A stretch of DNA of 64,000 bases from an uncultured virus (IMG/VR IMGVR_UViG_3300008107_000530). Its lineage: Duplodnaviria; Heunggongvirae; Uroviricota; Caudoviricetes. Both the position numbers and the translations under genes were made by a program. The notes under the pieces are model-generated. The model saw only the letters and a program-made list of their open reading frames with translations, did not search any database and was not told the origin of the DNA. Below, one piece after another: positions 11,380 to 29,945 of this stretch (the first letter of the stretch is position 1; the number at the start of each line of letters is the position of its first letter). The stretch lies in IMG/VR virus record IMGVR_UViG_3300008107_000530. One strand, written 5' to 3'.

Positions 11380-11416
11380 CGAGCGGCGAGCGGCCCAATC
11401 GGCCCCTAAAACGTAT

Positions 11417-12032: not shown

Positions 12033-12092
12033 GTTATTTAGACGGTGAGAGATTGGCTCTCCCCGCTGCAACCGAGAGAAAGGCTACACCCG

Positions 12093-12392
12093 GTGAACAC
12101 CAACCGCACACCGCCCAACCCGACCCGCTTCGCGGGTAAATACAGGAGTGCCGGATTCCGCCCCGTCAACTCCCCGAGCCCCCTGCTCAACCCCAAACCC
12201 CACGTGCGGCACGCCCCCGTGCCCGCATCCCTCAACCCATCCCAGACCGGTGCCCCGCTGGCCCTCAAGCCCACGCCAAACAAGTACACAGGTGCCGCCT
12301 GCCTGGGCATAGCCACGCTCCACAAATCCAACGCGGTCCCCGTCTTCAACCAACAAGCAGCCATCGACGCTGCACAGATGCGGAGAAACTGA
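12093..12392 (+). CDS. conserved phage hypothetical protein
   Basis: GTG start behind GAGAAAGG; C-terminal YTG..LGIATLHKSNAVPVF..MRR motif familiar from aquatic phages. Confidence 0.65.
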   Translation: MNTNRTPPNPTRFAGKYRSAGFRPVNSPSPLLNPKPHVRHAPVPASLNPSQTGAPLALKPTPNKYTGAACLGIATLHKSNAVPVFNQQAAIDAAQMRRN

Positions 12393-12393
12393 T

Positions 12394-12777
12394 ATGGACG
12401 AGAAGATGCACCCCAGTAACTGGATGTTCCAGTCCCTCATCGGTAAAACCGTCGAGGCGGTGGAGTACGTGGATGACTTCGACGAAGGCATCACCCTGCG
12501 GTTCACGGACGGCTCGTTCCTGTGCGTCTGTGAGGAGATGCAGGCCGGTCGCATCCAAGTGGCAGCAAGCATTGTCGAAGCCGAATTCACCGGGGAGCAA
12601 GACCCTGAGCCTGAACAGATGCCCCTGCACGAGGCACTGCGCGTTGCCCTGTCCGAGATCTATGCCACGTTGAGCGAGGTCGAACAGCACCCTGGGGAAG
12701 AAGATTGGTGGCTCAACCCGCCCGATGCCCTGCGCGAGGCCGCACGGATCATTGACCAGCACATGAGGAGTGCCTAA
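12394..12777 (+). CDS. hypothetical protein
   Basis: 127 aa acidic ORF, GGAGAAA RBS. Confidence 0.65.
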   Translation: MDEKMHPSNWMFQSLIGKTVEAVEYVDDFDEGITLRFTDGSFLCVCEEMQAGRIQVAASIVEAEFTGEQDPEPEQMPLHEALRVALSEIYATLSEVEQHPGEEDWWLNPPDALREAARIIDQHMRSA

Positions 12778-12780
12778 ACC

Positions 12781-13110
12781 ATGCGACTGTCGGACATCAA
12801 GAAGGAGGCGTGGGGCGCACGCGCCTGTTCCATACCTACCAAGATGGTGCCGGACTTCGACGCGCTGTTCGACACACTCAACAAGCAAGGGTGGTTGGTG
12901 CTGGAGCCCCCGGCCATCGACCACAGAGAAACATCCAACGGTGCGTTGGAGTCCAAGATCGTCAAGGACTTCAAGAACTGGATGATCCACAACCCACGGT
13001 TGATGCTGAATCACCGTCGAATCGGTGAGTACCGTTGGTACATCACTATCGGAGCCCCGTGCATGAGCACGAAACAACGCCGCAAGGCAAACCAAGGAGA
13101 AAGCAAGTGA
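12781..13110 (+). CDS. hypothetical protein
   Basis: 109 aa ORF, GAGGAG RBS, tight packing. Confidence 0.6.
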   Translation: MRLSDIKKEAWGARACSIPTKMVPDFDALFDTLNKQGWLVLEPPAIDHRETSNGALESKIVKDFKNWMIHNPRLMLNHRRIGEYRWYITIGAPCMSTKQRRKANQGESK

Positions 13111-13571
13111 CTTCAAAAGCCAAGACCAACCCGTTCACCTTCCGCGTGACGTGGAAACCGTTCACCCAACAAGACATCACGTGGGTCCAGCGCTTCATCT
13201 CTCTGCTGCCCAACAACCCGGAGCTGAGGTTTTTCAAACGTGCCGCATCCAGGGTGCATATCACCAACTCGGGCGAAGCCCGGTACGTGGACTCGCTCAA
13301 CGAGTTCATCTACGAGGAGGATGACGTGCTGGTGCTCGGGGACTACACCATTACCAAGTCCATCACAACGACGATCACCGAGACCGCAACCAAGACCACA
13401 CGCAGGGAGAAGTTCCTGTACATGGTGCATGAACCCGACGCGGACGAGATGGCTGCGCATGAACTGGGCGAGGCCGATTCGCTTGCAGGTGCGGTGAAGA
13501 TGATCTTCCTGCACGAGTACGAGGCGCTGTTCGACATGATGGTGGAGGAGATGCAGGAGGAGTGCGTATGA
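13107..13571 (+). CDS. hypothetical protein
   Basis: GTG start behind AAGGAGAAAG; GTGA overlap with upstream stop. Confidence 0.65.
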   Translation: MTSKAKTNPFTFRVTWKPFTQQDITWVQRFISLLPNNPELRFFKRAASRVHITNSGEARYVDSLNEFIYEEDDVLVLGDYTITKSITTTITETATKTTRREKFLYMVHEPDADEMAAHELGEADSLAGAVKMIFLHEYEALFDMMVEEMQEECV

Positions 13572-13768
13572 AGCATGCACATGCGAGAGCGCAAGAAGCC
13601 GCACGACCTAAGCTGCGTCCGTGGTGTGACCTGTGCAAGAACATCTTCTCCCCATCCGCCCGTAAGGCCGGGTTCACCGTGTGTATCAACTGCAGAAAGA
13701 ACAGCTCATGGACATTGAACCTCAAGACTTCGCGCTCGGCGTCGTCGCAATCGTTGCCATCGCTTTGA
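13568..13768 (+). CDS. small Zn-finger protein
   Basis: CDLC..CINC; ATGA overlap; GGAGGAG RBS. Confidence 0.55.
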   Translation: MKHAHARAQEAARPKLRPWCDLCKNIFSPSARKAGFTVCINCRKNSSWTLNLKTSRSASSQSLPSL

Positions 13769-13798
13769 TGGTGTTTGGTGTTATCTAGTATCAAATAC

Positions 13799-13827
13799 TT
13801 GACACTTGTGTCATGTAGTGTTACAAT
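13799..13827 (+). promoter_or_regulatory. strong sigma70 early promoter
   Basis: TTGACA, 17-nt spacer, TG-t-TACAAT. Confidence 0.9.
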
Positions 13828-13885
13828 GTCATTTGACGGTGGGAGATCGGCTCCCACCGCATCAACCCCGAAAGCGAGAAAGATC

Positions 13886-14791
13886 ATGAACTTCGAATCC
13901 ATCCACGCCCCGACCCCGGCACCTGTCAACGTGCCTAAACTCACCACGGCAATCCGTCTGGTGGAGCTGTCCATCTCCGTGTGGTCCGGACGCAAGCAAG
14001 ACAAGAACGCCACGCGTGACGCAGCCATCGCGTCCAACGCAGACAAGACGCTGCTCAATACCACCAAGAAGCTGCTTGGTGACTGCGAAGAGCTGGAGGC
14101 TGTGCGTAAGTTCGCAGCCAACGCACGTAACTTCGTTTACTCATCTACCTCACCGTGGGGTGACCTGGGTCAGCGTAGCTTTCCCATGTCCAAGTTCCCT
14201 GACTTCCACCGCGAGATCACGGGGATGCAGACCGAGTTCGACCGTCTCGTGACTAACTTCCTTGCGGTATACGACTATGCACGTACCAACGTGCAGGCCA
14301 AGCTGGGTGCCCTGTACAACCCCGACGAGTACCCCACCCCTGCATCTCTGCAGGACAAGTTCCGTTTCTTCTTCACCTACCCACCTGTGCCTGAAGCCAA
14401 CATGTATTCACAAGTTCAGGACGAGGCCGAGGCGTACCTCCGAGATGAGTATGCGCGTGTGTACACAGACCGTATCAACGGCATGATGAAGGACGTATGG
14501 GAGCGCGTGTACGACGCACTCAAGCACATGTCCGAGCGCCTGGACTACCCCGAGAACGCAGACAAGGGGACGAGAAAGATTTTCCGCGACACGTTGGTTG
14601 ACAACGTGCGTGAGAGTTTGGGTATGTTGAAGGACTTCAACATCACTGGAGATTCCCGACTGACTCAGTTGCACATGCAACTGGATAGCGCCCTGATGGG
14701 CGTGACGGCTGACGGACTGCGTGAAGACGACAGCTTCCGGCAGGAGACCAAGCGTACCGTGGACAGCATCCTGTCCAACATGTCTTGGTGA
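13886..14791 (+). CDS. DUF3150-like protein
   Basis: LVELSISVWSGRKQD..TKKLL..PWGD.G.R..LGALYNPDEYP motifs; precedes AAA and vWA genes; ATG 13886 behind GAGAAAG. Confidence 0.6.
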   Translation: MNFESIHAPTPAPVNVPKLTTAIRLVELSISVWSGRKQDKNATRDAAIASNADKTLLNTTKKLLGDCEELEAVRKFAANARNFVYSSTSPWGDLGQRSFPMSKFPDFHREITGMQTEFDRLVTNFLAVYDYARTNVQAKLGALYNPDEYPTPASLQDKFRFFFTYPPVPEANMYSQVQDEAEAYLRDEYARVYTDRINGMMKDVWERVYDALKHMSERLDYPENADKGTRKIFRDTLVDNVRESLGMLKDFNITGDSRLTQLHMQLDSALMGVTADGLREDDSFRQETKRTVDSILSNMSW

Positions 14792-14841
14792 GTGTGTTTG
14801 TGTGTTTGTTTATCAACCTGTAACAACCTGAGAGAAAGACC

Positions 14842-15972
14842 ATGAGTAATTCCAACTTCAACGCCACCGCTGCCCTGTATGACGTGTCGATTGCGCAAGC
14901 GACGAACATGATCCGCCTGTGCGGCTCCAAGAACACCGTGCTGCTACAGGGTCACATGGGTACGGGCAAGTCGTCCGTGCTGAAGACTCTGGCAAAGATG
15001 CTGCCTACGCACCGCCCCGTGTACTTCGACTGCACCACTAAAGATCTCGGTGACATCATGCTGCCCCGGATCAAGGAGGCCACCGATGGTGAAGCCATGT
15101 GCGCTCAGTTTGTGCCGCACGAGGAGTTGGGTCTGCACATCCCCGGGCCTGTGATCCTGATGGTCGACGAGTTCGGCAAGGCCAACCCCGCTGTGAAAAA
15201 CGCCATGCTCAAGATCATCCTTGAGCGTACGGGCCTGCATAAAGATTCCATCGTGTTCCTGACGACCAACCTCGGGGCCGAGGGGGTCGGTGATCTGCTG
15301 CCTGCACATGCACGCAACCGTATTACTGTGATCCGCACGCGCAAGCCCACTAACGTCGAGTGGGTGGAGGACTTCGCTATCGACGCAGGTATCGACCCGA
15401 TCATGATTGCTTGGGTCATGGAGAACCCGCAGTTGTTCCAGAGTTTCGAGCAGGTGAGCAAGCCCGACGAGAACGAGCACATCTTCCACCCTGCAGCGCC
15501 GGGACGGGTAAGTTTCTTCACGCCACGCACAGCAGAACTGGCTTCACATTGGCTCAAGCAGCGGGAGTTCCTGTCCGATCACGAGTTGACCGCAGCACTC
15601 ATGGGCACTATCGGTGTGGCGTCGGCACGTAGCTTGGCTACGTACGTGAAGATCGGTGATCAGATGCCCAAGCTGCAGGAGATCAAGGACACGCCCGACA
15701 CAGCCAAGGTGCCTACAAACGAGACCGCTATCTGTATGGTGGTGCACCGCACGCTGCAGACCATCGAGCGTAACTGGACCGAGTCGTGGGTGAAGTACAT
15801 GGAGCGTCTGCCTAAAGAAGCTCAGGGTTTGTTCGCCAACGCCGTGCGTAACGCAGTGGCTAAGTCCAAGAACGGGCAGGCTAACAAGCGACTCATCGAG
15901 GTCACGACGAGCAAGGCATACATGGACTGGTGCCTGAAGAACAACTACATGTTTGCCGCGGATAAAATGTAA
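14842..15972 (+). CDS. AAA+ ATPase (MoxR/dynein-related type)
   Basis: Walker A GHMGTGKS, Walker B ILMVDEF, TTN sensor, NR finger, TPR motif. Confidence 0.85.
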   Translation: MSNSNFNATAALYDVSIAQATNMIRLCGSKNTVLLQGHMGTGKSSVLKTLAKMLPTHRPVYFDCTTKDLGDIMLPRIKEATDGEAMCAQFVPHEELGLHIPGPVILMVDEFGKANPAVKNAMLKIILERTGLHKDSIVFLTTNLGAEGVGDLLPAHARNRITVIRTRKPTNVEWVEDFAIDAGIDPIMIAWVMENPQLFQSFEQVSKPDENEHIFHPAAPGRVSFFTPRTAELASHWLKQREFLSDHELTAALMGTIGVASARSLATYVKIGDQMPKLQEIKDTPDTAKVPTNETAICMVVHRTLQTIERNWTESWVKYMERLPKEAQGLFANAVRNAVAKSKNGQANKRLIEVTTSKAYMDWCLKNNYMFAADKM

Positions 15973-16017
15973 ACGAGGGTATACGTATCAACAAGTAATG
16001 AATCGGAGAAACACAAA

Positions 16018-17373
16018 ATGCTGATGATCGGTAAAAAACTCACCGCGCATCAGCGCCTGAGCAAGGCGCTGGTGGATATCCTCGCAGTGGAACGCTTCAC
16101 TGCACTGTCTGGTGTGCTGCTGTTGGTGGGGCACCGCATACAGAACGCGGACGACCCAAAAGCCAAGACCGGGACTGCGTGTACTAACGGTATCGAGTGC
16201 GTGTACGCGGAGAAGTTCGTGGAGTCACTCAACGATGCGGAGCTTCGCTTCCTCATCCTGCACGAAACGTATCACTGCATGTTCAAGCACCTGACTACGT
16301 GGGAGCACCTGTATGAGGAGGACCCGTCGCTGGCCAACCAAGCCTGCGACCACGTGATCAACTTGTTCCTGCTGGACGCAGCCGAAGAAATATCGAACCT
16401 TAACGCGACATTGCGTAATTTCATGGCCATGCCGTCATGCGGGGGCTGTGCAGACAAGCGGTTCGCCGGGATGGACGCAGCCAAGATCTTCCGTATCCTC
16501 AAGCAGGAGCAGGACCAACAACAGCAACCGCAACAACCGCAAGATCAGGGCCAAGGCGAGGGGCAGGGGGATGGTGACGGTTGTGACGGTTGTGACGGTA
16601 AGTCTGACAAAAATGATGTGTCCGAAAATTCTTCGGGTGGTACACCACCCAAGAACAAAGCACCACAAGGCTTTGACGACCACGACTGGGAGGGCGCTGC
16701 CGAGCTGAGCGACGAGCAGAAGGCCGAGATCGGACGCAAGATGGACGAGGCTGTGCGTCAGGGTGCGCTGCTTGCCGGGAAGGTGGGTAGCGGGGGTATG
16801 CGCGAGATGGAGGACTTGCTCAAGTCCAAGGTGCGGTGGCAAGACGCGCTGCGGGAGTACCTGCACTCGGTGTGTACGGGTAACGACTTCAGCACGTGGC
16901 GCAGGCCCAACCGCAGGTATCTGGCCGCAGGTATCTACATGCCGTCCGGTGTATCCGAAGTTATTGGCGAAATCGTAATCGGCGTGGACACGTCAGGCTC
17001 CATCGGTGGGCAGGAGATCGCGCAGTTCCTGGGCGAGATCGCGGGTATCTGTGAGACGGTTCGGCCCGAGGCAGTGCGTCTGCTGTACTGGGACACGCAG
17101 GTGTGTAAGGACGAGCGGTACACGCAAGACCAACTGGACACGCTCACCAAAACAACCAAGCCAGAAGGCGGCGGTGGCACCAGCCCCGACTGCGTGCCGA
17201 TGTATCTGAACGCAAACAACATGAAGCCGCAGGTGTGCGTCATGCTCACTGACGGTTACGTAGGCAACAACTGGGGCGACAACTGGCCGTGCCCTGTGTT
17301 GTGGTGTGTGGTCGGCAACGCCAGCGCCGAGGCGACCACGGGAAAGACCATTCACGTCGAGTGGGATCGGTGA
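16018..17373 (+). CDS. DUF2201-type metallopeptidase-vWA protein
   Basis: TACTNG, HETYH (HEXXH), NQACDHVIN; DTSGS MIDAS motif, GGGGT, LTDG. Confidence 0.85.
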   Translation: MLMIGKKLTAHQRLSKALVDILAVERFTALSGVLLLVGHRIQNADDPKAKTGTACTNGIECVYAEKFVESLNDAELRFLILHETYHCMFKHLTTWEHLYEEDPSLANQACDHVINLFLLDAAEEISNLNATLRNFMAMPSCGGCADKRFAGMDAAKIFRILKQEQDQQQQPQQPQDQGQGEGQGDGDGCDGCDGKSDKNDVSENSSGGTPPKNKAPQGFDDHDWEGAAELSDEQKAEIGRKMDEAVRQGALLAGKVGSGGMREMEDLLKSKVRWQDALREYLHSVCTGNDFSTWRRPNRRYLAAGIYMPSGVSEVIGEIVIGVDTSGSIGGQEIAQFLGEIAGICETVRPEAVRLLYWDTQVCKDERYTQDQLDTLTKTTKPEGGGGTSPDCVPMYLNANNMKPQVCVMLTDGYVGNNWGDNWPCPVLWCVVGNASAEATTGKTIHVEWDR

Positions 17374-17412
17374 ACGAGAGTTATCAACTGTCAACAACTT
17401 AGGAGAAAGATC

Positions 17413-18330
17413 ATGGGTTACACAAATACTCCAGTGTCCGCTATCAGGGAGTTCACGGTGTGCGATGCCAAGGGTTGGGATTGCATGGGGCCGCACGCCA
17501 ACGACGTGCATCCGAACTTGGCGGAGTTCGTGAACGAACTGCGTAGAGCAGCGCCGTGGCTACGGTTTGCCGTGGATCGGGTCATACCCTATATCCGCGA
17601 GGTGTACGTGTACATGGACAACCACGAGTACGCGCTGGGTCGGGTCGGCTACGGTGACTACGCCATACGTGACACCAACACGGTGTACATGGTGAGCAGC
17701 CGCAACATCAAGAACGGCAAGGTGGCGGACTGGCGCAGTCAGCACCACATGGTGCAGACGGAGGACCTGAAGCGTGCAGTGAAGAGCGCACTGAAATACC
17801 TCACGCCGATGTCATGCGTGGAGATCGCAAGTGAGTCCTACGATACGTTCCACTCCGGCATCCGGGAGACTAAGAATAACAAGATCACACAGAGCGGTGA
17901 CCTGTTGTCCGCCTGCCGTAGCGCGAGTGTATTTTCTGTAGAGTTCCAGAACCTGCTGACCCAGAACGTGACTTTTGTCACACCGGAGTTCCAGAAAGCT
18001 GCACGAGAATACAAGGAAGCCGAGCTTACTTCCAAGACCGCGATGGTGCGCAAGGTCGGTGCGCTGTTTGTGCGGGTGCGCACTATGGGGCAGGGCGACG
18101 ACAACCTCATGGCCGAGATCATCAACTTCAAGACCGACCTGATCGGGAAGTACTACGTCAAGAACGTGCATCCGGACAACCGCCCGCAGTCGCTGGTAAA
18201 GATGTCTGACCTGTCAGAAGATCTGCAGTCCAAGCTCGCTACGTTGTCAATGATGCCGGAGAACACCTACACAACAGATCTCGGTATGAAGGTATCAGAC
18301 ACGTTGTACTGGGTCGAGCAGGATGTTTGA
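17413..18330 (+). CDS. hypothetical protein
   Basis: 305 aa ORF, AGGAGAAAG RBS. Confidence 0.75.
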   Translation: MGYTNTPVSAIREFTVCDAKGWDCMGPHANDVHPNLAEFVNELRRAAPWLRFAVDRVIPYIREVYVYMDNHEYALGRVGYGDYAIRDTNTVYMVSSRNIKNGKVADWRSQHHMVQTEDLKRAVKSALKYLTPMSCVEIASESYDTFHSGIRETKNNKITQSGDLLSACRSASVFSVEFQNLLTQNVTFVTPEFQKAAREYKEAELTSKTAMVRKVGALFVRVRTMGQGDDNLMAEIINFKTDLIGKYYVKNVHPDNRPQSLVKMSDLSEDLQSKLATLSMMPENTYTTDLGMKVSDTLYWVEQDV

Positions 18331-18643
18331 GCCTATCGCATCTTGTGTAAACCTAGACGACATCTGCCGAGTGGATCTCACACCACCTCACATCGTGGTC
18401 ACGTATTCTCCGCTTGCGCAGGTGTCAGTAGTTAACTATGATGGTGCCGAGTGTCTTCCAGAGTGGATGCAGCGTAAGCTGGCTGTTCTGATGACGCTTG
18501 ACCCAGATAAGGTAAACGCAGAGTTACCAGGGATCGGTAGACGTATTTCAATGTACGTTTATTGGATTCGGTGTTCCCAAGGAGAAACGATTGGCACTCA
18601 CACCCGAGAGGAAAGTAAAGCTCCTCGTTCGGAAAGTCCTTGA
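18323..18643 (+). CDS. hypothetical protein
   Basis: 106 aa; LPEWMQRKLAVL..IGRRIS..VYWI resembles the C-terminus of the upstream protein (LSEDLQSKLATL..LGMKVS..LYWV). Confidence 0.6.
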   Translation: MFEPIASCVNLDDICRVDLTPPHIVVTYSPLAQVSVVNYDGAECLPEWMQRKLAVLMTLDPDKVNAELPGIGRRISMYVYWIRCSQGETIGTHTREESKAPRSESP

Positions 18644-18884: not shown

Positions 18885-18893
18885 GAGTAGTTC

Positions 18894-19256
18894 ATGACAA
18901 CGGAAACCAAGATCGAACTCGGCGCAGCGCAGCCGCCCGTGAAGAAGAGGCGCGGTCGCCCCGCGAAGTCCAACGCTCAACGCGTCCGTGAGTTGAGCAA
19001 CGCAGGGTTCACGCCGAAACAGATCGCGGCCAAGACCGGCGTTAGCGTGCAGCAGGTGTACGTGGTGCGCCACACGGAGAAGCGGCGCAAAGAGAAAGAA
19101 CTGGCTTCAAAGTCGCGCGTCGTTGGGAAGCCCTTTGCGCCTGCCCCAGTCAAGATCGAGGGGGCGAAGATCCCTTACGACACCGTGACGGTGGCTGCTG
19201 AAGCACCTAAACCTACGTTCTGGCAGCGGGTCAAGGCCGTGTTTTTCCCCCAGTAA
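18894..19256 (+). CDS. putative DNA-binding protein (AT-hook plus HTH)
   Basis: KKRRGRPAK; GFTPKQIAAKTGVSVQQVYVV. Confidence 0.65.
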   Translation: MTTETKIELGAAQPPVKKRRGRPAKSNAQRVRELSNAGFTPKQIAAKTGVSVQQVYVVRHTEKRRKEKELASKSRVVGKPFAPAPVKIEGAKIPYDTVTVAAEAPKPTFWQRVKAVFFPQ

Positions 19257-19274
19257 ACATACAAGGAGAACGAG

Positions 19275-19487
19275 ATGCGAGATAAGAGAGAGTTTTTCCG
19301 ATTCGACCACCCCAAGGACATCATGATCGGCAAGGGACGTATCGTCTACGAACCGTCTTACGAGACGTGGATTCTGCCGGGGGGTATCCGCACCCGCGAT
19401 CAGGCTCGTGCCGAGTTAATGGCAAAGACCATCAACGAGATCACGCTTCGGCAGGAGGAATCCAAGCGGAAGGCGGTGCGTAAATGA
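19275..19487 (+). CDS. hypothetical protein
   Basis: 70 aa, AAGGAGAA RBS, WILPGG motif. Confidence 0.65.
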   Translation: MRDKREFFRFDHPKDIMIGKGRIVYEPSYETWILPGGIRTRDQARAELMAKTINEITLRQEESKRKAVRK

Positions 19488-19657
19488 GCACACCCACGCT
19501 ACACCCTAAGGCGCTCATGCGCCACGCCCACGAACTGTGGAACTCTCCGCTGGTCCCTGCAGAGACCAACAAACACAACCGCAAAGCCTGGGTACGCAGC
19601 GTGATACGCCTCGGTGATCGGTGGCTGTTGGCACGCAAGGTAGGGAGGGTGCAATGA
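19484..19657 (+). CDS. small hypothetical protein
   Basis: 57 aa (MSTPTLHP..NRKAWVRSVIRLGDRWLLA), below ORF-track cutoff; overlaps both neighbours. Confidence 0.6.
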   Translation: MSTPTLHPKALMRHAHELWNSPLVPAETNKHNRKAWVRSVIRLGDRWLLARKVGRVQ

Positions 19658-19830
19658 GCAAGCTGCCAAAAGGTTTAGACCAACAAGGTCGGCACCCGGA
19701 GGCAGCGGAAGCTGCCACGGAAATTGGCGTGGAAGACCTGCCCGAAGCAGTCGGCAGTGTGGTGCTGCTGGCTGTGGTCGTGATTGTTGTGATTGCAGTG
19801 GTTGCCTTGCTTGCGGGGTACTACGCATGA
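19654..19830 (+). CDS. small membrane protein
   Basis: C-terminal hydrophobic helix VVLLAVVVIVVIAVVALLAG; GGAGG RBS. Confidence 0.55.
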   Translation: MSKLPKGLDQQGRHPEAAEAATEIGVEDLPEAVGSVVLLAVVVIVVIAVVALLAGYYA

Positions 19831-20081
19831 ACGACCTTCCGCGAACCCCGTGGTTCGGTGCGCTGGAATACCCAGTACGCGAAGGTGTGTACGAGCGCAA
19901 GCTGTTCGACCACCACAATGCAGATCCCTTGATTGTTTACTCCTACTGGGATGGCAAGCAGTGGTATGTCGGTACGTACGCACCTGAAGATGCTATGGCT
20001 ATGGCCGAGAAGTACGGCCCGACGATGACCCTATACCGCGAATGGCGCGGACTAATCAAGGAGAACGAAGATGAAAGTTGA
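19827..20081 (+). CDS. hypothetical protein
   Basis: TPWF..PVREGVYER..SYWDGKQW..WRGL phage motif. Confidence 0.65.
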   Translation: MNDLPRTPWFGALEYPVREGVYERKLFDHHNADPLIVYSYWDGKQWYVGTYAPEDAMAMAEKYGPTMTLYREWRGLIKENEDES

Positions 20082-21181: not shown

Positions 21182-21269
21182 CCCGAATTCACTACTGGTG
21201 CCCGGTGTACCGGGCGTATGTCTATGCCTTGGTGCCGACCGAGGTTGCTTTCAAACTGATGGGGTGGGT

Positions 21270-21886: not shown

Positions 21887-22004
21887 ACCCTAAACAATTC
21901 CTCCGCCGTTGCTTCGCATGCAACAAGGATCTACCTGAACACACTGGCAGTAGTAAGCCCCGTGGGTTGTGGCGCTGCGCTGCCTGTACACAAAAGAGTA
22001 AGCA

Positions 22005-22190
22005 ATGAAATACGAACAAGCCAAACCTCTCGTTGAGCGGTTGATGGACATCTGCGTCCTGTACCACGGAGCACCAACGCTGCTGCGGGAGAAGATCTAT
22101 ACAGCCATTGAATTTCACATCCCGCATATGGATCAAGGCTGTCTTGAGCGTGGCTGCGCTTGTGCTGATGACTGGAGGAAGAATGAGTAA
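22005..22190 (+). CDS. hypothetical protein
   Basis: 61 aa ORF in overlapping gene run. Confidence 0.5.
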   Translation: MKYEQAKPLVERLMDICVLYHGAPTLLREKIYTAIEFHIPHMDQGCLERGCACADDWRKNE

Positions 22191-22359
22191 ACAAATTGCC
22201 GAGCACACAGCCCGGTTCGACATCGCAGCGCTTCGCGTGTTTGGACGCAGTGCCCCACCACCTGAAGGTGTCATCACTCCGCTACTGCTCAAGGCAGCAG
22301 ACGACATGGAGAAGATGTTGGAGGAGTTGCTTGAACTACGTGCAAAGGAGAAGAAATGA
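22183..22359 (+). CDS. hypothetical protein
   Basis: ATG 22183 behind GGAGG. Confidence 0.5.
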   Translation: MSKQIAEHTARFDIAALRVFGRSAPPPEGVITPLLLKAADDMEKMLEELLELRAKEKK

Positions 22360-22673
22360 GCAAAGATGACATCATCCGCATGGCGCGGGAAGCGGGTTTC
22401 GCTGTAGAGGATGGTGGCGTTTACACCCCAGACGCATACGGACCCGGCGATGTTACGCAGTTGGTGAAACGCTTCGCCGCCCTTGTTTACGAGTCAATAT
22501 TCCGTGACGCAAACATCGCCGCTTCACGGACGATATTGGATGCGGCAGTTCTGGAAGAACGAGAAGCCTGCGCGAAGGTGTGTGAAGCCAGAGCCGACGA
22601 GGAAGTCGGCATGGCGTATGCAGGGATCGCACTTGACTGCGCCGCCGCCATCCGCGCAAGGAGTAACACATGA
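22356..22673 (+). CDS. conserved phage hypothetical protein
   Basis: DDIIRMAREAG..RFAALV..EREACAKVC..CAAAIRAR motif. Confidence 0.7.
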   Translation: MSKDDIIRMAREAGFAVEDGGVYTPDAYGPGDVTQLVKRFAALVYESIFRDANIAASRTILDAAVLEEREACAKVCEARADEEVGMAYAGIALDCAAAIRARSNT

Positions 22674-22858
22674 GATACGAAGCTCAAGACTTCGCCCGCT
22701 GTGCGGGTAACCCATGCTTTGAATACTGCAACGCATGTAAACGTAATCTCAAGAACTCTCCGGTTCACCCGGAGGCAACCCATCAGTGGCACATGGGGCC
22801 GTGGATCATGGAAGATGAGAAGTGCCCGTCATTTACGGAGATGAAGGAGGATGTTTAA
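22670..22858 (+). CDS. small Cys-rich protein
   Basis: DFARC..C..C..C.R; AAGGAG RBS. Confidence 0.55.
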   Translation: MRYEAQDFARCAGNPCFEYCNACKRNLKNSPVHPEATHQWHMGPWIMEDEKCPSFTEMKEDV

Positions 22859-23084
22859 GTGTCCCGAGTGCGGAGTGTGGACGGAGGTGATAGACACGCG
22901 AGTGAGGGCCGATGGCTCGCGCCGCCGTCGTTACCAGTGCGGGAACCTGCACAAGTTCTGGACAGAGGAACGCATAACCCCTGGCCCTTCCTCTACAGCT
23001 ACCGCCAAGACGGAAGCGTTACAAAAAATCGAGGAAGAAAAACAACGCGTTATGCTGAAGCTGAAAGTATGGGAGAAGCCCTAA
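22851..23084 (+). CDS. NrdR-like Zn-ribbon protein
   Basis: KCPECG..VIDTR..RRRRYQC..KFWTEE; lacks ATP cone. Confidence 0.7.
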   Translation: MFKCPECGVWTEVIDTRVRADGSRRRRYQCGNLHKFWTEERITPGPSSTATAKTEALQKIEEEKQRVMLKLKVWEKP

Positions 23085-23085
23085 T

Positions 23086-23301
23086 ATGAGTGCAAATGAG
23101 ACACAGGTGGGGGGAACCCACTACAAACAGTTCCAGTATGAAACCTGGGACGTGATCCTAGACTGGCAGCTCGGGTATCTTGACGGCAACGCAGTCAAAT
23201 ATCTCAGCCGTTGGAGACATAAAAACGGAGTGCAAGATCTGAAGAAGGCTGCGCATTACATCCAAAAGCTCATCGAGGTGGAGGAGTCCCGTGCCGCTTG
23301 A
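23086..23301 (+). CDS. DUF3310 family protein (putative nucleotide kinase-like)
   Basis: QVGGTHY..GNAVKYLSRW..KNGVQDLKKA.HY. Confidence 0.85.
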   Translation: MSANETQVGGTHYKQFQYETWDVILDWQLGYLDGNAVKYLSRWRHKNGVQDLKKAAHYIQKLIEVEESRAA

Positions 23302-24655
23302 GGTCATAAGAAAACTTCTTGTAGCACGCAAGCCGAAGTCCGTGCTCGAAATCAAGGACGCCGACCCTGATTGGTCACCATTGCGCCACTGCGTTGCACA
23401 CGATGTCGAGTGGACTATGGCGGACGATCTAGCTGCGTGGAAGCCTCAGAGCAAGTACGACGTTGGGTTGATTGGTCGGGTGCTTGAGCGTTTCAGTGTG
23501 TCCGACGCCCTGTTTCTGATGCACCGGATGTCCGAGTGCTGCAGCACGGTGGTTCTGCGTGTAAAACGAAGCAGTGAACTCGTCGCCGCGCTGCCCGCAC
23601 CGCAAGAGATGTACGTGGAGGACGACATCGGTGTTTATGTATATACAAGTACAAGCGCCGAAGCCGCACCGCTGCCCACCATCTTCGTGAACATCGCTTC
23701 GTACCGTGATGACCATGAACTGTGGGCGACGGTCGAAGATGCAGTAGCCAAGGCCGAGCACCCTGAACGACTGCGGTTTGCCGTAGTTGATCAGACCGTG
23801 TACCCTGCCCGAGAAGATAAGCTGGCGTTGGCCGCACCTGCGCAGATCGAGTATCTGTTTGTGGACTACAAGTTCAGCCGTGGCCCTTGTTGGGCACGAG
23901 CGGTGGGGTTCACGCTTTTGTACGACGAGGACTACGCGCTACAGGTCGATTCACATTCGCGGTTCGATCCCGGATGGGATACATGGTTTATACAAACAAT
24001 AGAACGCTTGAGGTCCAAGTCAAGCAAGCCTTACCTGTCCATGATGCCGTATGGGTTCACCTATGAGAACAACAAGGTGAAGCTGGATCGCTGGGGCTCA
24101 GCAACCGTAGGGCAGAAGCCCGCCCAAGATGGGCCGATGAGCGCCGTGGCTATCAACTATGCGGGTGCGATATGCGCACACGCCGATGATCTGGAGGGTA
24201 GCCGTATATCTGCAGGCTGCGTGTTCGCTCCTGCAGACCTGTTCAGGCAAGTGTTGATTGACCCGGCCCTGTACTTCTACGGTGAGGAGCACAACTTCAC
24301 GGTACGTGCTTTCACCCACGGGTGGGATCTGTTCTTCGTTGCAGGACAACCTGTCTTCCACCTGTTCAATGATACGAAGTGCTCCGTCCGTGCGCCGCAT
24401 TGGAACGAGGGGGATGACAAACAGCGGGCTAAGCGCTGGTGGACATACGATGAGCAGTCAAACAAGCGGCTGAAAAGTTTGCTGGTGGGCGGGGCAAACC
24501 TTGGGGCTTACGGGCTCGGCACTGCACGTACCCTAGCTGATTACGCTGACAAGTTTGGCATCGACTACCCGAACATGCGCGTGCGCGATGGCTTCGGGGA
24601 AAAGAAACAACCTGAGAACTCGGAGAACGAACAACATGGACCTGATAACTCTTGA
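23291..24655 (+). CDS. GT60-like (GlcNAc-transferase family) glycosyltransferase with degenerate methyltransferase-like N-terminus
   Basis: TIFVNIASYRD, HPERLRFAVVDQ, SRGPCWAR, LQVDSHSRF..WD, DP.LYFYGEE..RAFTHGWD, YGLG..RTLADY. Confidence 0.75.
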   Translation: MPLEVIRKLLVARKPKSVLEIKDADPDWSPLRHCVAHDVEWTMADDLAAWKPQSKYDVGLIGRVLERFSVSDALFLMHRMSECCSTVVLRVKRSSELVAALPAPQEMYVEDDIGVYVYTSTSAEAAPLPTIFVNIASYRDDHELWATVEDAVAKAEHPERLRFAVVDQTVYPAREDKLALAAPAQIEYLFVDYKFSRGPCWARAVGFTLLYDEDYALQVDSHSRFDPGWDTWFIQTIERLRSKSSKPYLSMMPYGFTYENNKVKLDRWGSATVGQKPAQDGPMSAVAINYAGAICAHADDLEGSRISAGCVFAPADLFRQVLIDPALYFYGEEHNFTVRAFTHGWDLFFVAGQPVFHLFNDTKCSVRAPHWNEGDDKQRAKRWWTYDEQSNKRLKSLLVGGANLGAYGLGTARTLADYADKFGIDYPNMRVRDGFGEKKQPENSENEQHGPDNS

Positions 24656-26372
24656 CTTTGAAACGTACTACGACAGGGAGTTCAGCCTCACGAAACTTAC
24701 AACTGAAGAGTACATACGCGATAAACGGTTTGAGGTTATCGGCGTGGGGCTCAAGGTCAACAACGGCGTAGTGGAGTGGGCAAGTGGGACTGAACAGCAG
24801 ATCAAAGATTGGTTACTCCAGTTTGACTGGGAAAACTCTATGGCGTTGGCTCATAACGCTATGTTTGATGGGGCCATTCTGGCTTGGCGGTTTGGCATTC
24901 TGCCTAACCTATGGCTTGATACTCTGTGCATGGGGCGGGCTCTGCACGGTGTGGAAGTCAGTAACTCCCTGGCAGCGCTAGCGCAGCGCGAGGGGCTCGG
25001 CACCAAGGGCGTGGAGGTGCTGACCGTAGCGGGTATGCGCCGCGAGGACTTCTCCAAGGAGCGGCTGGCTCGGTACGGGGACTACTGCGTCACCGACGTG
25101 GAGCTTACGTACCTGCTGTTCAAGAAGTTCTTACCCCTGTTCCCCAAGAAAGAACTGAAGCTCATAGATACAACGCTTCGTATGTTCATTGAACCTACGC
25201 TGCGGCTGGACAAGGATCTTTTGCAAGAGCACCTGCAGAGTATTCAGGAACAGAAGTCCAAGTTGCTGGCCGACAGTGGTGTGGAAGCATCGGATCTGAT
25301 GAGCAACCCAAAGTTCGCAGAGGTGTTGGCCAATCTTGGTGTAACGCCGCCGAGGAAGACGAGTCTGACCACAGGTAAAGAAACGCATGCGTTTGCCAAG
25401 AACGACGAAGACTTCATCGCATTGCTCCATCATCCGGACTGGCGCGTGCAAGGGTTGGTATCGGCACGTCTTGGAATGAAGTCAACGCTGGAAGAGACTC
25501 GCACCCAACGGTTCATTGACATAGCCGAGCGGGGCGCACTGCCGGTGCCGATCAAGTATTACGCAGCGCACACGGGGCGGTTCGGCGGGGACGACAAGAT
25601 CAACCTGCAGAACCTGCCGAGCCGAGGAGAGAACGCGGGGAAGNNNNNNNNNNNNNNNNNNNNNNNNAAGAAACAGTTTAAGCACGACCCGTACAAGCTG
25701 ATGGCATCACAAATTTACGGTAAGCCAACCACCGAGATCACAGACCCTGAACGGTTTGTAGGTAAGACAACGATCCTTGGTGCCGGGTACGGTATGGGCG
25801 CGGTGAAGTTTCACGCCCAGTTAAGGGGCTCAGAGGCGAACGTGGATCTGGACGAAGCCCGCCGAATCGTGGAGGTATACCGGAAGTCAAACCCGGCGAT
25901 CACCGGTTTGTGGCGACAGGCGCAGCTCATGCTGGTCGCGATGCTGCGGGACGAGCCGGCCATGCTGGGGCGCTCCGGTGTGCTGTCAATAGTGCCCGTG
26001 GAGAAAGCAATCCTGTTGCCTAGCAAGCTGATGCTGCGGTACGATGACCTGAAGGCGCAGGAGGGTGAGAAGGGGATCGAGTTCACCTACAAGACCCGTA
26101 AGGGGCGCACCCGCATTTACGGCGGGAAGGTCATCGAGAACGTCTGCCAAGCCATTGCCCGCTGCATCATCGGGGAACAGATGCTGCGCATTGCCATGAA
26201 GTACAAAGTTGTGCTGACAGTGCATGACGCTATCGCGTGCATCTGCAGAGACGAAGAAGTAAATGAAGCTCGGGCGTATGTTGAAGAATGTATGCGGTGG
26301 GTGCCGAAGTGGGCAGGAGGACTGCCTGTTAACTGTGAAAGCGGAGTAGGAAAAAGTTATGGCGACTGCTGA
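24636..26372 (+). CDS. polA: family A DNA polymerase with 3'-5' exonuclease domain (spans assembly gap)
   Basis: ExoI DFET, ExoII HNAMFD, ExoIII YCVTD; HTGRF..NLQNLP, motif B RFVGKTTILGAGYG, motif C VHDA; motif A falls in N gap 25644-25667. Confidence 0.9.
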   Translation: MDLITLDFETYYDREFSLTKLTTEEYIRDKRFEVIGVGLKVNNGVVEWASGTEQQIKDWLLQFDWENSMALAHNAMFDGAILAWRFGILPNLWLDTLCMGRALHGVEVSNSLAALAQREGLGTKGVEVLTVAGMRREDFSKERLARYGDYCVTDVELTYLLFKKFLPLFPKKELKLIDTTLRMFIEPTLRLDKDLLQEHLQSIQEQKSKLLADSGVEASDLMSNPKFAEVLANLGVTPPRKTSLTTGKETHAFAKNDEDFIALLHHPDWRVQGLVSARLGMKSTLEETRTQRFIDIAERGALPVPIKYYAAHTGRFGGDDKINLQNLPSRGENAGKXXXXXXXXKKQFKHDPYKLMASQIYGKPTTEITDPERFVGKTTILGAGYGMGAVKFHAQLRGSEANVDLDEARRIVEVYRKSNPAITGLWRQAQLMLVAMLRDEPAMLGRSGVLSIVPVEKAILLPSKLMLRYDDLKAQEGEKGIEFTYKTRKGRTRIYGGKVIENVCQAIARCIIGEQMLRIAMKYKVVLTVHDAIACICRDEEVNEARAYVEECMRWVPKWAGGLPVNCESGVGKSYGDC

Positions 26373-26550
26373 GATCGTGGACTACGCTATGCCTCTGATG
26401 AACATCGAGCGCATGGCCAAACAACTGTATAACGAATGCCTGGAGGATGATCTCCCGGCTGCGGAAGAGACCGCCCTGCGGATGGGTGTAGAGGTACGAG
26501 TGCTTCAGGCTACCCTTGCGATCATGCAAAACAAGGAAATGCCGCGATGA
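26359..26550 (+). CDS. hypothetical protein
   Basis: 63 aa overlapping ORF, VDYAMPLMNIE motif. Confidence 0.6.
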   Translation: MATAEIVDYAMPLMNIERMAKQLYNECLEDDLPAAEETALRMGVEVRVLQATLAIMQNKEMPR

Positions 26551-27218
26551 GCACGAGCCGCTGGTCATACAGCAGCCTGAAACTTTTTGAACAGTGCCCT
26601 CGAAAGTATTACCACCTGCGGGTGGTCAAGGACTTCAAGGAGCCTGAGTCAGAAGCAATGATGTACGGCACGCGGTTCCACGAAGCTGCGGAGTTCTACA
26701 TCAAGGAAGACCGCCCACTCCCCCCGTACTTCACCTTTGTCAAAGGTGCTTTGGACAACCTGAAGCACATCAAGGGGGAGAAGCTGTGCGAATACGAGAT
26801 GGGGATTACGGAAGACCTGCAGCCCTGTGCGTTCAACGCACCCAATGTTTGGTTCCGTGGGATTGCTGACCTGCTGATTCTGGATCGGGAGTCAGGAGAG
26901 GCAAGGATCGTTGACTACAAGACTGGCAAGTCTTCCAAGTACGCGGACCCGGATCAGTTGGAGTTGATGTCCCTGTGCGTGTTCAAGCACTTCCCCGAGA
27001 TCAAGAAGGTGCGCTCCGGCCTGCTGTTCGTGGTGTGCAACGCATTCGTGAAGAGCAAGTGCGAATCCACCCAGCAAGATACGCTCTGGAAGAAGTGGAC
27101 AGACAAGCACGACAAACTAAAATTTGCCGTGAGCCACGACGTGTGGAACCCCAAGCCTTCCGGTCTTTGCCGAAAGCACTGCGTGGTGACGAGCTGCCCG
27201 CACAACGGAAAGAACTGA
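26547..27218 (+). CDS. PD-(D/E)XK (RecB-like) exonuclease
   Basis: WSYSSL..FEQCP, GTRFH, RGIADL..IVDYKTGK, QL, C-terminal C..C..C. Confidence 0.85.
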   Translation: MSTSRWSYSSLKLFEQCPRKYYHLRVVKDFKEPESEAMMYGTRFHEAAEFYIKEDRPLPPYFTFVKGALDNLKHIKGEKLCEYEMGITEDLQPCAFNAPNVWFRGIADLLILDRESGEARIVDYKTGKSSKYADPDQLELMSLCVFKHFPEIKKVRSGLLFVVCNAFVKSKCESTQQDTLWKKWTDKHDKLKFAVSHDVWNPKPSGLCRKHCVVTSCPHNGKN

Positions 27219-27219
27219 C

Positions 27220-27477
27220 ATGCCCTACACCAAGTCCCCCCGCCCGTACAAACACGAGTACGACATGCAGCAGCAGCGCGGCGAACACGAAGACCGCATG
27301 GAGCGGCAGCGTGCCCGGAGGGCGATGGATAAGAAGGGTGTCAACCGCAAAGGTAAAGATGTTTCTCACGTGAAAGCGTTGGCACGCGGTGGGACTAACG
27401 CTGACGGCTACAAGCTGGAGTCTCCGAAGGCAAACCGCAGCAGGAATCTGCACAAAAAAGGCGAAAAAGCCACTTGA
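27220..27477 (+). CDS. small HNH-like protein
   Basis: GKDVSHVKAL..GGTN..NRSRN. Confidence 0.65.
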   Translation: MPYTKSPRPYKHEYDMQQQRGEHEDRMERQRARRAMDKKGVNRKGKDVSHVKALARGGTNADGYKLESPKANRSRNLHKKGEKAT

Positions 27478-27502
27478 CGTGCCAGCGCGGTAGCGCTACA
27501 TT
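27474..27502 (+). promoter_or_regulatory. sigma70 promoter
   Basis: TTGACG, 17-nt spacer, TACATT. Confidence 0.7.
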
Positions 27503-27508
27503 GGATTT

Positions 27509-27661
27509 GTCTGCGGTGGCAGATCCCCTGTAAGGTGTGGGTGGGGGGCAGCGGTCTTCCGAGGGACCGATAACTACACCAGTCGGCACGAGAATCCTTT
27601 CTCCTCTCGGGAACCGATAAGCAGACGGCGGAACAGCTAACCCTGTTCTGCCTGTTCTGCC
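27509..27661 (+). ncRNA. putative structured RNA or 5' leader with anti-SD loop
   Basis: Non-coding, behind promoter; stems GTCTGC/GCAGAC, GGTGTGG/CTACACC, CGGTC/GACCG, CGAGA/TCTCG (loop ATCCTTTCTCC), GGCGGAACAG/CTGTTCTGCC. Confidence 0.55.
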
Positions 27662-27679
27662 ATTCCAACAAGGTACGAG

Positions 27680-29218
27680 ATGCAAATCATTGACAACAAA
27701 GCGCTGCTCTTGACACTGCGTGACCCTACCAAAGTTACGTCAGTCATCCCAAAGAGCAAGGTGGTCGGCGCTAACAAGGTGGCGGTGCATTGGGGTCTGG
27801 ACGAGGCACAGGTGCTGAAGAACCTGAAGATCAAGAACGTGCCGTCCCCCATCCTCAAAGAGTACGACTGGCCTGGGCTGCACGCCCCCTTTGAACACCA
27901 GAAGACAACCGCAGCGTTCCTGACATTGAACAAGCGGGCGTTCTGCCTCAACGAGCAGGGCACCGGCAAGACTGGCAGCGTCATCTGGGCAGCAGACTAC
28001 CTGATGAAGAAGGGCCGAATCCGGCGCGTGCTGGTGGTGTGCCCCCTGTCTATTATGGACTCGGCATGGCGTGCGGACCTGTTCAAGTTCGCAATGCACA
28101 GGTCGGTGGATGTGGCTTACGGGTCAGCAACCAAGCGCAAGGAAGTTATCGCAAGCCAGACAGAGTTCGTCATCGTCAACTTTGATGGTCTGGAGATCAT
28201 TGCCGAGGACGTTGCAGCGGGCGGGTTCGACCTCGTGGTGGTTGACGAAGCCAACGCATACAAGAATGTGCAGACCAAAAGATGGAAAACGCTCAACAAA
28301 CTGCTGCGTCCTGATACGTGGTTGTGGATGCTGACAGGAACTCCCGCAGCGCAGTCCCCTATGGATGCCTACGGTTTAGCTAAGTTGGTCAATCCGTTAG
28401 CTGTGCCGAAGTTCTTCTCCTCCTTCCGCGACATGGTGATGTTCAAGGCGACCCAGTTCCGCTGGATACCCAAGCCGACCGCCACGCAGACGGTGTTCAA
28501 CGCCCTGCAGCCAGCCATCAGGTTCACCAAAGCCGAGTGCCTTGACCTCCCCGAGATGACCTACGTGGACCGCCACATAGCGCTGACCAAACAGCAGGAG
28601 CAGTATTACAAGGTGCTCAAGAACAAGATGATTGTCGAAGCTGCGGGGGAGGAGATCACTTCCGTCAATGCAGCCGTCAACCTGAGTAAGCTACTGCAAC
28701 TGTCTTGTGGTGCGGTCTACGCAGACACAGGTGATACGGTCACCTTCGACATCAAGAACCGATACAACGTACTGCTGGAAGTCATCGAAGAAGCAGCCAA
28801 GAAAGTTTTGGTGTTCGTCCCGTTCCGCAACTCCATCGAACTTGTGGCAAGCCAGCTTACCAAGGACGGGTACACAGTAGAAATCATCAATGGAGATGTG
28901 CCAGCCAATAGACGCACTGAAATCTTCAAACGCTTCCAAGAAACGCCAGATCCGCGTATCCTTGTCATTCAACCGCAAGCTGCATCGCACGGTGTCACGT
29001 TGACCGCAGCCGATACGGTTGTATGGTGGGGGCCTACTAGCTCCTTGGAGACCTACTCACAGGCAAACGCACGGGTACACCGGGCAGGGCAGCGCCACCC
29101 CACAACGGTGGTACGGCTCCAAGGATCGAACGCGGAACGCCACGTGTATCAAATGCTAGACACTAAAGGAGATGTCCACACACAAATAGTTGACCTCTAT
29201 AAGAGGCTACTAGCATAG
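27680..29218 (+). CDS. SNF2-family helicase
   Basis: EQGTGKT, VVVDEA, LTGTP, HGVTLT, QANARVHRAGQ. Confidence 0.9.
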   Translation: MQIIDNKALLLTLRDPTKVTSVIPKSKVVGANKVAVHWGLDEAQVLKNLKIKNVPSPILKEYDWPGLHAPFEHQKTTAAFLTLNKRAFCLNEQGTGKTGSVIWAADYLMKKGRIRRVLVVCPLSIMDSAWRADLFKFAMHRSVDVAYGSATKRKEVIASQTEFVIVNFDGLEIIAEDVAAGGFDLVVVDEANAYKNVQTKRWKTLNKLLRPDTWLWMLTGTPAAQSPMDAYGLAKLVNPLAVPKFFSSFRDMVMFKATQFRWIPKPTATQTVFNALQPAIRFTKAECLDLPEMTYVDRHIALTKQQEQYYKVLKNKMIVEAAGEEITSVNAAVNLSKLLQLSCGAVYADTGDTVTFDIKNRYNVLLEVIEEAAKKVLVFVPFRNSIELVASQLTKDGYTVEIINGDVPANRRTEIFKRFQETPDPRILVIQPQAASHGVTLTAADTVVWWGPTSSLETYSQANARVHRAGQRHPTTVVRLQGSNAERHVYQMLDTKGDVHTQIVDLYKRLLA

Positions 29219-29265
29219 CCCACAAGAACGTACTAGAATTCAAACCCCGACAACAGGAGAACGAC

Positions 29266-29697
29266 ATGGACGACACGGTTGCAACGACCGAGAGCGAAGC
29301 CTCCCCCCAAATTTCAGTAGACCGGTTGGTACGTGCATTCCTCAAGATGCGCACCGCCAAGGAGAAGCTGGTCAAAGAACACGAGGAAGAGGTCGCCAAG
29401 CTGGAAGAAGGTCTCAAGACGATCAAGCTGGCGCTGCTCGGGTACTGCAAAGACAACAACATCGATAGCGCCAAGATCGCTGGGGTAGGCATGTTCTACC
29501 GTGGCGTGAAGAAGCGCTACTGGACAAACGATTGGGAAGCTATGGGTAGGTTCGTGCTTGAACACGAAGTGCCCGAGCTTTTTGAGAAGCGCCTGCACCA
29601 AGGGAACATGGAATCCTTCTTGGAGCAGCACCCGGAATTGCTACCACCCGGGCTGAACGTGGATAGCGAATTCACCATAACTGTCAGGAGGGCTTAA
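29266..29697 (+). CDS. conserved phage replication-region protein
   Basis: Coiled coil plus DWEA..LFEKRLHQGNM..PPGLN; AGGAGAA RBS. Confidence 0.7.
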   Translation: MDDTVATTESEASPQISVDRLVRAFLKMRTAKEKLVKEHEEEVAKLEEGLKTIKLALLGYCKDNNIDSAKIAGVGMFYRGVKKRYWTNDWEAMGRFVLEHEVPELFEKRLHQGNMESFLEQHPELLPPGLNVDSEFTITVRRA

Positions 29698-29933
29698 TGG
29701 CCGAAGACAAATACGTTGCAATTGATAAGGTCGCTGACTACTTCCAAGTCTCGGTCTCAACCGTGCGGTCATGGGTGCGTACTGGGGCCGTGCCTGAAAC
29801 CGCATACCTCAAGATCGGAAAGACCTACCGGTTCCAACTGCCAGAGGTAGAAAACGCTTTGCGGGCACACAACGCAGCCAAGTCCGCAATGCTGACCCAA
29901 GCGGCTGACTCAAACCCCGACCAAGATCTTTAA
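29697..29933 (+). CDS. excisionase/MerR-type HTH DNA-binding protein
   Basis: IDKVADYFQVSVSTVRSWVR.G.VP..LKIGKTYRF. Confidence 0.75.
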   Translation: MAEDKYVAIDKVADYFQVSVSTVRSWVRTGAVPETAYLKIGKTYRFQLPEVENALRAHNAAKSAMLTQAADSNPDQDL

Positions 29934-29945
29934 GGAGAACAAACC

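Follow-up and report, generated by a model that had tools for sequence, protein, structure and literature searches.

Many early genes of an uncultured freshwater phage carry the same few bases around the core of their ribosome-binding sites (RBSs), and this raises the question of whether these bases are ordinary translation signals or an address that is read during infection. The phage is represented by IMG/VR record IMGVR_UViG_3300008107_000530 (here the window, meaning the whole stretch of 64,000 nucleotides (nt) that was analysed), a nearly complete phage genome of 64 kb with 56% GC. Its early and replication genes occupy the + strand between 10402 and 33975, and the − strand carries the genes for packaging, structure and lysis. 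The initial annotation had proposed that the bases 3′ of GGAG in the Shine-Dalgarno (SD) sequences of early genes let UUCUCC-bearing RNAs silence these genes while structural genes are spared. What was observed, by computation, comprises the tags, the architectures of two RNA genes, and the complementarity between RNAs and tags together with its co-variation among genomes. On this sequence evidence the tag is really two tags, each with its own matching, predicted and conserved non-coding RNA, and since the RNAs are exact complements of the tags and change together with them between lineages, they probably switch the early genes off.

Tags at the start regions of early genes

Genes were assigned to the early or late class by strand throughout, and the starts in the window were curated by hand (42 early, 35 late). 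All 16 early starts named in the initial annotation have GGAGAA or GAGAAAG within positions −20 to −1, and the late starts that it named show the other SD variants reported for them: AAGGAGT (capsid, decoration and scaffold), AAGGAC (portal, 5297), GAGGAGC (terL, 40334), GAGGT (42010, 54135, 55056 and 55493), GAGGAC (43737) and AAGGAGC (56510). The early enrichment remained significant upon full tabulation (16/42 early versus 1/35 late genes; Fisher p=1.8e-4). Plain GAGAA gave 16/42 versus 2/35, the second late case (59623) having the motif 17-20 nt upstream of its start, and the base after GGAG was A in 14/27 early as compared to 1/11 late genes. A permutation of the arm labels over all 5-mers, which corrects for the choice of motif, gave a family-wise p value of 0.0016. 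Because any SD core was present at similar frequency in both arms (29/42 early versus 20/35 late, p=0.34) and the A content was also alike (0.36 versus 0.31), the tag does not merely reflect more SDs or an A-rich arm. The canonical anti-SD, which was used here and may not be that of the host, does not pair with an A that follows GGAG. Host assignment from capsid relatives in genome bins was rejected, as these relatives are spread over unrelated phyla and resemble binned phage contigs.

The 16 starts fall into two classes that are sorted by position, with GAGAAA at 8/8 starts from 12093 to 18591 and GGAGAAC or GGAGAAG at 8/8 starts from 19275 to 29946. The first-tier tagged start regions (10382..18590, + strand; GAGAAAG, GGAGAAA or GAAAGGAT) belong to the genes at 10402, 12093, 12394, 13107, 13886 (DUF3150-like), 14842 (AAA ATPase), 16018 (DUF2201/VWA), 17413 and 18591, all on the + strand. 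The second-tier regions (19255..29945, + strand; GGAGAAC or GGAGAAG) belong to the + strand genes at 19275, 20071, 21178, 22356, 23086, 24636 (DNA polymerase A), 29266 and 29946. The tag is absent from 26/42 early genes. Overlap with the upstream gene was found for 19/25 untagged early genes with a measured gap, compared to 6/16 tagged ones, and untagged genes of this kind could be translationally coupled to a tagged gene.

The claim that late genes avoid the tag held only in part. When the window was pooled with 14 relatives, GGAGA preceded 204/549 early and 59/682 late genes, and since the late rate (9%) is close to that of sampled bacterial genes from five bins (39/387, 10%), it is the early enrichment that carries the signal, while late avoidance is mild. 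As the initial annotation had noted, the holin-like gene 51619 (start region 51620..51639, − strand) is the one late gene of the window with GGAGAA or GAGAAAG. This gene has no Pfam hit and matches a PHROG of unknown function only, so that its "holin" label derives solely from its position before the lysozyme gene. The suggestion that lysis is delayed through this site did not hold up, as 0/6 orthologs keep GGAGA and the site in the window pairs by 6 nt only; the GGAGAA at 51619 is not conserved and probably arose by chance.

Two predicted RNAs complementary to the tags

RNA-B (33988..34054, + strand) lies where the early and late arms converge, and consists of a hairpin (33990-34006), a single-stranded seed (34007-34026) and an intrinsic terminator (34027-34054). 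The last early open reading frame (ORF; 33766..33975, + strand; 69 aa, no assigned function) served as the positional anchor. Its stop codon overlaps an extended −10 promoter-like sequence with no clear −35 (TG-A-TACCAT; 33973..33981, + strand), a motif that most relatives share at the equivalent position; a strict sigma70 scan did not pick up this site in the window. An extended −10 without a −35 is also present upstream of the late operon in the window and in two relatives (G023 and G024) and was not found in most of the others, so that a late promoter for RNA-B is a lead only. The fold of RNA-B has a z score of −4.2 (0/200 shuffles), and the unpaired probability of the seed exceeds 0.9 at 18/20 bases. 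Across 74 distinct loci, a terminator scan found a terminator at the junction element in 66, and TCTCC was found in 52 with a crude delimiter. In 44 cleanly delimited junction bodies, UCUCC occurred in 36 versus 4.5 in shuffles, and CCUCC, the true anti-SD word, in 6 versus 3.6 expected, which is no enrichment. The promoter, the terminator and UCUCC are kept while the remainder diverges. A reverse-strand peptide at RNA-B was considered and rejected, the ORFs being absent or 1-91 aa long in different frames, with none conserved.

The RNA-B seed has perfect complements of 15, 12, 7, 8, 6, 9, 10 and 9 nt at 19275, 20071, 21178, 22356, 23086, 24636, 29266 and 29946, respectively, with duplex energies of −27, −23, −22, −22 and −16 kcal/mol for 19275, 20071, 24636, 29266 and 29946. 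Complements of at least 8 nt were found at 2/12 genes of the first block and 6/30 later early genes. When non-coding 40-nt windows were scanned without bias, early start regions were matched best by the junction in the window and in 8/18 relatives, with a terminator-flanked candidate taking the place of the junction in G013 and G015. With its predicted promoter, terminator, accessible seed and co-varying complementarity to target start regions, RNA-B has the properties of a trans-acting base-pairing small RNA (sRNA).

RNA-A (27522..27626, + strand) is a conserved structured RNA in the 5′ leader of the helicase gene. It is composed of a hairpin, a 6-bp pseudoknot and an internal-loop stem with a variable, pyrimidine-type tip that forms the seed, and the leader is 170 nt long. 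A promoter-like sequence for RNA-A and the helicase gene (TTGACG-17-TACATT; 27474..27502, + strand; 9/12 match) has counterparts at the same place in the relatives with RNA-A. In an alignment of 21 sequences, 93.8% of cells were paired (100% in the pseudoknot helix), with two-sided changes in 18/24 pairs. The loop AUCCUUUCUCC (27594..27604, + strand) is the complement of GGAGAAAGGAU, and a perfect complement of 7-8 nt was found in 9/12 genes from 10402 to 18591 and in 0/30 downstream early genes, with the boundary of this 12-gene first block drawn after the data were seen. RNA-A has no clear terminator, and processing may be required. An Rfam search at gathering score gave no match anywhere in the window, no Rfam family matches RNA-A, and no tRNA genes were found in the window. 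Directly before the helicase RBS, the relatives L002-L047 have another hairpin, whose loop is GAGACCCA/GACACCCA-like, whether or not they carry RNA-A.

Co-variation of seeds and start regions among relatives

Relatives of this phage are abundant among uncultured viral contigs, and the group is a common freshwater one. The capsid belongs to the HTVC023P type (63% identical to HTVC023P and 71% to Pag-Yong1), and for the replication module (helicase and primase) the type is that of Pseudomonas phage Rollin / Rhizobium RHph_TM3_14A. Starts in the relatives were called with a purpose-written gene caller whose SD term gives no reward for an A after GGAG; it agreed with the hand curation for 38/42 early and 29/35 late starts, and with the GenBank record of Pag-Yong1 for 31/32. 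GGAGA was more common before early than late genes in 19/20 related contigs, and the difference reached p<0.05 in 14 of the 20. No such bias was seen in Pag-Yong1 or in 50 kb of Rollin, and a scan for UCUCC followed by a terminator in the isolates Pag-Yong1, Rollin (50 kb) and HTVC023P (50 kb) gave no hit. In genomes with a UCUCC junction RNA, A followed GGAG in 276/421 early versus 83/279 late genes, while in genomes without one it did so in 71/152 early versus 90/204 late genes. It is only in this comparison, conditioned on GGAG, that a late depletion becomes visible (83/279 versus 90/204), at a per-genome p of 0.034 for genomes that are not independent. Most genes of DSL-LC04, HTVC023P and G043 lie on one strand, and the strand-based split is not meaningful there; G043 was nevertheless counted among the 10 genomes without a UCUCC junction RNA.

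In terms of the RNAs themselves, 20 of the 28 perfect complements of at least 12 nt found elsewhere in their own genomes (19 genomes) fall in early start regions, which make up about 2% of the sequence, and none fall in late start regions. When each RNA was tested against its own and other genomes (16 genomes), the own genome ranked first in 8, with p<1e-5 for early and p=0.14 for late start regions. Because this first set of RNAs had been chosen with a TCTCC filter, 21 further genomes were taken in which the RNAs were chosen by position alone. The element was found in 13 of these (in G042 the script overlooked one that is visible by eye), and matches of at least 8 nt occurred in 88/467 early versus 11/490 late start regions of the 13 held-out genomes. 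The own-genome preference was again significant for early (p<1e-5) and not for late start regions (p=0.12), and 7/9 long matches were in early start regions. Kinship was taken from a neighbour-joining tree without support values. A positive own-genome excess was seen in 11/13 nearest-neighbour pairs, chosen so as not to overlap (p=0.0012), as compared to 7/13 for late start regions (p=0.29). The near copies G026 and G027 (of G023 and G024) were left out of the own-versus-other-genome and pair tests and kept in the bias count of 20 relatives and the count of complements of at least 12 nt. For RNA-A, the own-genome preference over 7 genomes gave p=3e-4.

Individual relatives illustrate how the address follows the seed, including shifts away from GAGAA. 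The junction seed of G040 carries GCUCC, and GGAGC is found in 17/31 early versus 3/16 late GGAG genes. The RNA-A loop of G046 matches AAGGAAAC at the orthologs of 13886 and 17413, so that both the tip and the first-block sites have changed. In G004 the RNA-A loop matches UGAAAGG-type sites (6/48 early versus 0/43 late genes), and in G023 and G024 the helicase site and the seed differ by a compensating base. The junction RNA of G014 lacks UCUCC and the genome has no GGAGA bias, yet its best match is to its own early genes. The address is lineage-specific rather than a fixed GAGAA, and it is split between two RNAs. That it is read by RNAs bearing UUCUCC or its counterpart is supported by the tabulation and by this tracking of seeds, and the silencing itself is the part of the original proposal that we infer.

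Proposed function and rival readings

In the reading that we prefer, the bases surrounding the SD core in many early genes would be a phage-private address that is read by pairing with two phage RNAs, and this address-and-reader pairing is, from the sequences compared, highly probable. RNA-A would be transcribed together with the helicase gene, from a promoter that has a −35 box, and would pair with the GAGAAAG sites in the first block of early genes. RNA-B, whose promoter lies where the early arm ends and lacks a −35, would pair with the GGAGAAC sites of replication genes and other later early genes. The pairing would cover the SD (and the AUG in several relatives) and block 30S loading; early translation would be shut down in two steps, and late genes, which carry no address, would keep their ribosomes. 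Repression that drives the early-to-late switch is the most likely function, and we consider it fairly probable. We infer transcription, timing, repression and the two-step order, with the direction and timing of the effect deduced from the coverage of the SD by the seeds and from the form of the promoters. A broader scheme of RNA-programmed lytic timing is put forward tentatively, in which private SD extensions would sort gene classes and successive RNAs, with a swappable seed on a conserved scaffold, would silence these classes in order. RNA-A would then be a pseudoknotted scaffold with a programmable tip that may be passed on to a partner protein, and the shifting addresses could serve as immunity types as well.

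Several observations weigh against repression through paired addresses. The whole-body duplex energy does not separate the arms in the window (−15.3 early versus −15.0 late, p=0.45), unlike the longest perfect complement, which did. In G008 and G011, the candidate RNA fails to match the genes of its own genome (rank 13 of 16 and rank 12 of 16, respectively). The bias occurs without a junction RNA in G007, G009 and G038; plausible other anti-RBS candidates lie elsewhere in G007 and G009, and none that is convincing was found in G038. G051 has the RNA without GGAGA bias, and G055 has the bias with a seed that lacks UCUCC. G053 and G056 have neither a junction RNA nor significant bias, and because they and the bias-free G014 form a single low-GC clade, these cases count as one event. 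In terms of RNA-A, its model gave strong hits in only 9/46 genomes, five of which are training members or near copies, and the first-tier matches are just 7-8 nt long. The RNA-A tips of G023 and G058 lack real targets (0/31 and 1/27, respectively), and when the whole leader is folded without the pseudoknot the seed is mostly paired; these last two points make RNA-A less certain than RNA-B. The starts of the relatives also come from a purpose-written caller, with early and late defined by strand alone.

The same pairing might serve superinfection exclusion or carrier-state immunity against an incoming phage with the same address, so that the rapid address turnover would mark immunity groups, as with c4 in P1 and P7. 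This reading is unlikely, and it is not mutually exclusive with repression for the early-to-late switch. All of the co-variation results fit it equally, the addresses of the window and G046 differ though their replication proteins are about 75% identical, and an excisionase-like helix-turn-helix gene lies at 29697. The specificity of c4 underlies P1/P7 heteroimmunity (PMC12197685), and the RNAs described here resemble c4 and P22 sar in being phage RNAs that pair near an RBS through a seed displayed in a loop, with a specificity that differs between related phages (PMC12197685). However, no integrase, repressor or antirepressor was found among the PHROG and Pfam hits, and the position-sorted targets of two separate RNAs are more in keeping with a time course than with one immunity switch. 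Unlike c4 and sar, which as described act on antirepressor synthesis and lysogeny, about 15 genes share the address here. The predicted targets are many early and replication genes rather than the antirepressor operon of a temperate phage, and the C4 model (RF01695) gave no hit at gathering score in the window and none at E<=10 over either RNA.

It is quite improbable that the RNAs pair with the tags in order to guide a nuclease or other protein, to activate translation, or mainly to hit host mRNAs that use GGAGA. The best Rfam look-alike of RNA-B is RF02278 (24.4 bits against a gathering cut-off of 50), a bacterial family that is toxic to E. coli, and GGAGA does precede 39/387 sampled bacterial genes. 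On the other hand, the seeds track the phage's own genes, and the match length of the phage targets is reached by only 15/387 and 12/387 bacterial start regions, for hosts that were guessed. Activation is hard to reconcile with seeds that cover the SD itself. RF02278, a Betaproteobacteria toxic sRNA, is similar to RNA-B in its length of approximately 60-70 nt, its UCUCC-rich 5′ part and its intrinsic terminator (PMC4603805). It is a chromosomal family whose function is not known, and a co-varying target set is not described in the accessible part of that source; among five related records, two had a match to RF02278, none of them over the cut-off.

Ordinary SD usage, in which early genes would have a host-like A-rich SD, late genes would differ by composition or gene overlap, and the pyrimidine tracts would be terminator flanks, is very unlikely. 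A is the commonest base after GGAG in 4/5 sampled bacterial metagenome-assembled genomes (39/104 overall), the late GGAGA rate equals the bacterial one, and the bias is present in G007, G009 and G038 though they have no junction RNA. However, ordinary usage cannot yield genome-specific complements of 12-15 nt, the own-genome preference or the GGAGC switch of G040; it is at odds with the lack of arm bias in Pag-Yong1 and Rollin, and is largely refuted by the independent nearest-neighbour pairs.

There is similarly little to recommend a protein reader like T4 RegB, which cuts GGAG with an A-rich 3′ extension in early and not late mRNAs (consensus GGAGRAYARAA; PMC1702504; PMC3014915): although many early ORFs have no known function, 0/77 start regions match this consensus (0/42 early, 0/35 late), no REGB_T4 (PF10715) hit was obtained in 46 Pfam-scanned ORFs or five related records (weak evidence, as the control was also empty), and a nuclease would leave the co-varying complementary RNAs unexplained. 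The likeness to RegB lies in the use of bases 3′ of GGAG to single out early mRNAs, and not late ones, for shut-off, with the proposed purpose of freeing ribosomes. RegB, as described, is a protein nuclease that needs S1 and has one fixed consensus, whereas the reader proposed here is RNA and the address varies by lineage. The Cuckoo / alpha-r14 sRNAs of Alphaproteobacteria also show an anti-SD-like pyrimidine motif in loops (PMC4615179). Those RNAs are described with an invariant CCUCCUCCC in 2-4 adjacent hairpins; the phage RNAs have one or two UCUCC seeds with variable extensions and no CCUCC enrichment, and neither a set of 2-4 CCUCCUCCC hairpins nor an Rfam hit was found for them.

The phage RNAs therefore belong to none of RegB, c4/sar, RF02278 or Cuckoo, and combine the logic of RegB with the means of antisense RNA. 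The examples in the available portion of a review of phage sRNAs are single-target or host-directed (PMC12197685), and full-text literature searches, with most subscription journals outside their scope, yielded no report of a phage sRNA with a seed that co-evolves with several RBSs of the same phage. If the repression reading is correct, an abundant freshwater phage group would do by small RNAs what T4 does by RegB, in that early mRNAs are marked at the RBS and cleared from ribosomes. The natural seed/target pairs make this directly testable by reporter fusions, and would offer ready-made orthogonal translation switches.

Other features were observed elsewhere in the window and in its relatives. 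A 22-nt stretch containing GTTCTCCGAG is present in two copies (11250-11271 and 11358-11379) in the non-coding gap after the 11149 terminator, and the complement of this stretch agrees over 10 nt with the start region of the DNA polymerase gene (24636). L407 has one copy with one base changed. No promoter was seen; these repeats may be a third reader or part of an origin region. The primase gene has a G/C hairpin in its leader (30860-30922) and, as judged by GGAGA, an SD in 0/20 relatives. At the primase position, a further UUCUCCU stretch is found in G002 (14411) and G025 (7231), matching 10 and 13 early start regions, respectively. In DSL-LC04 (L330), a UGUCUCCUC stretch precedes a terminator near 28003 (− strand), just after the DNA polymerase gene, and has a 10-nt match to one start region. 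DSL-LC04 is a cultured relative and a possible bench system.

The early arm has a sigma70-type promoter (TTGACA-17-TACAAT; 11/12 consensus match) with a leader hairpin before 12093 (12004..12068, + strand), and a second such promoter with a near-identical leader hairpin before 13886 (13799..13862, + strand; fold z −2.4). The hairpins (12041-12068 and 13835-13862) stand right behind the two consensus promoters, the same layout is seen in G046, L404, L405 and L407, and they could be antitermination or stability elements. They are similar to PeSL cassettes, which in T4-type phages are described as terminators (PMC2839356). An HNH homing-endonuclease-like gene (1512-1456, − strand) with its own sigma70-type promoter follows the capsid terminator. 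A GlcNAc-type glycosyltransferase gene (PF11397; 23291-24655, early arm) lies directly before the DNA polymerase gene. The last gene of the late arm (34053-40334, − strand) encodes a 2093-aa protein with a DarB-like C-terminal part (PHROG 10089), and a 1205-aa Pro/Ala/Thr-rich repeat protein (43759-47376, − strand; N run near 44646) is likely a virion or adhesion protein. Between the divergent arms, GT-rich direct repeats with 32-nt spacing (11440-11830) are a candidate replication origin or packaging region.

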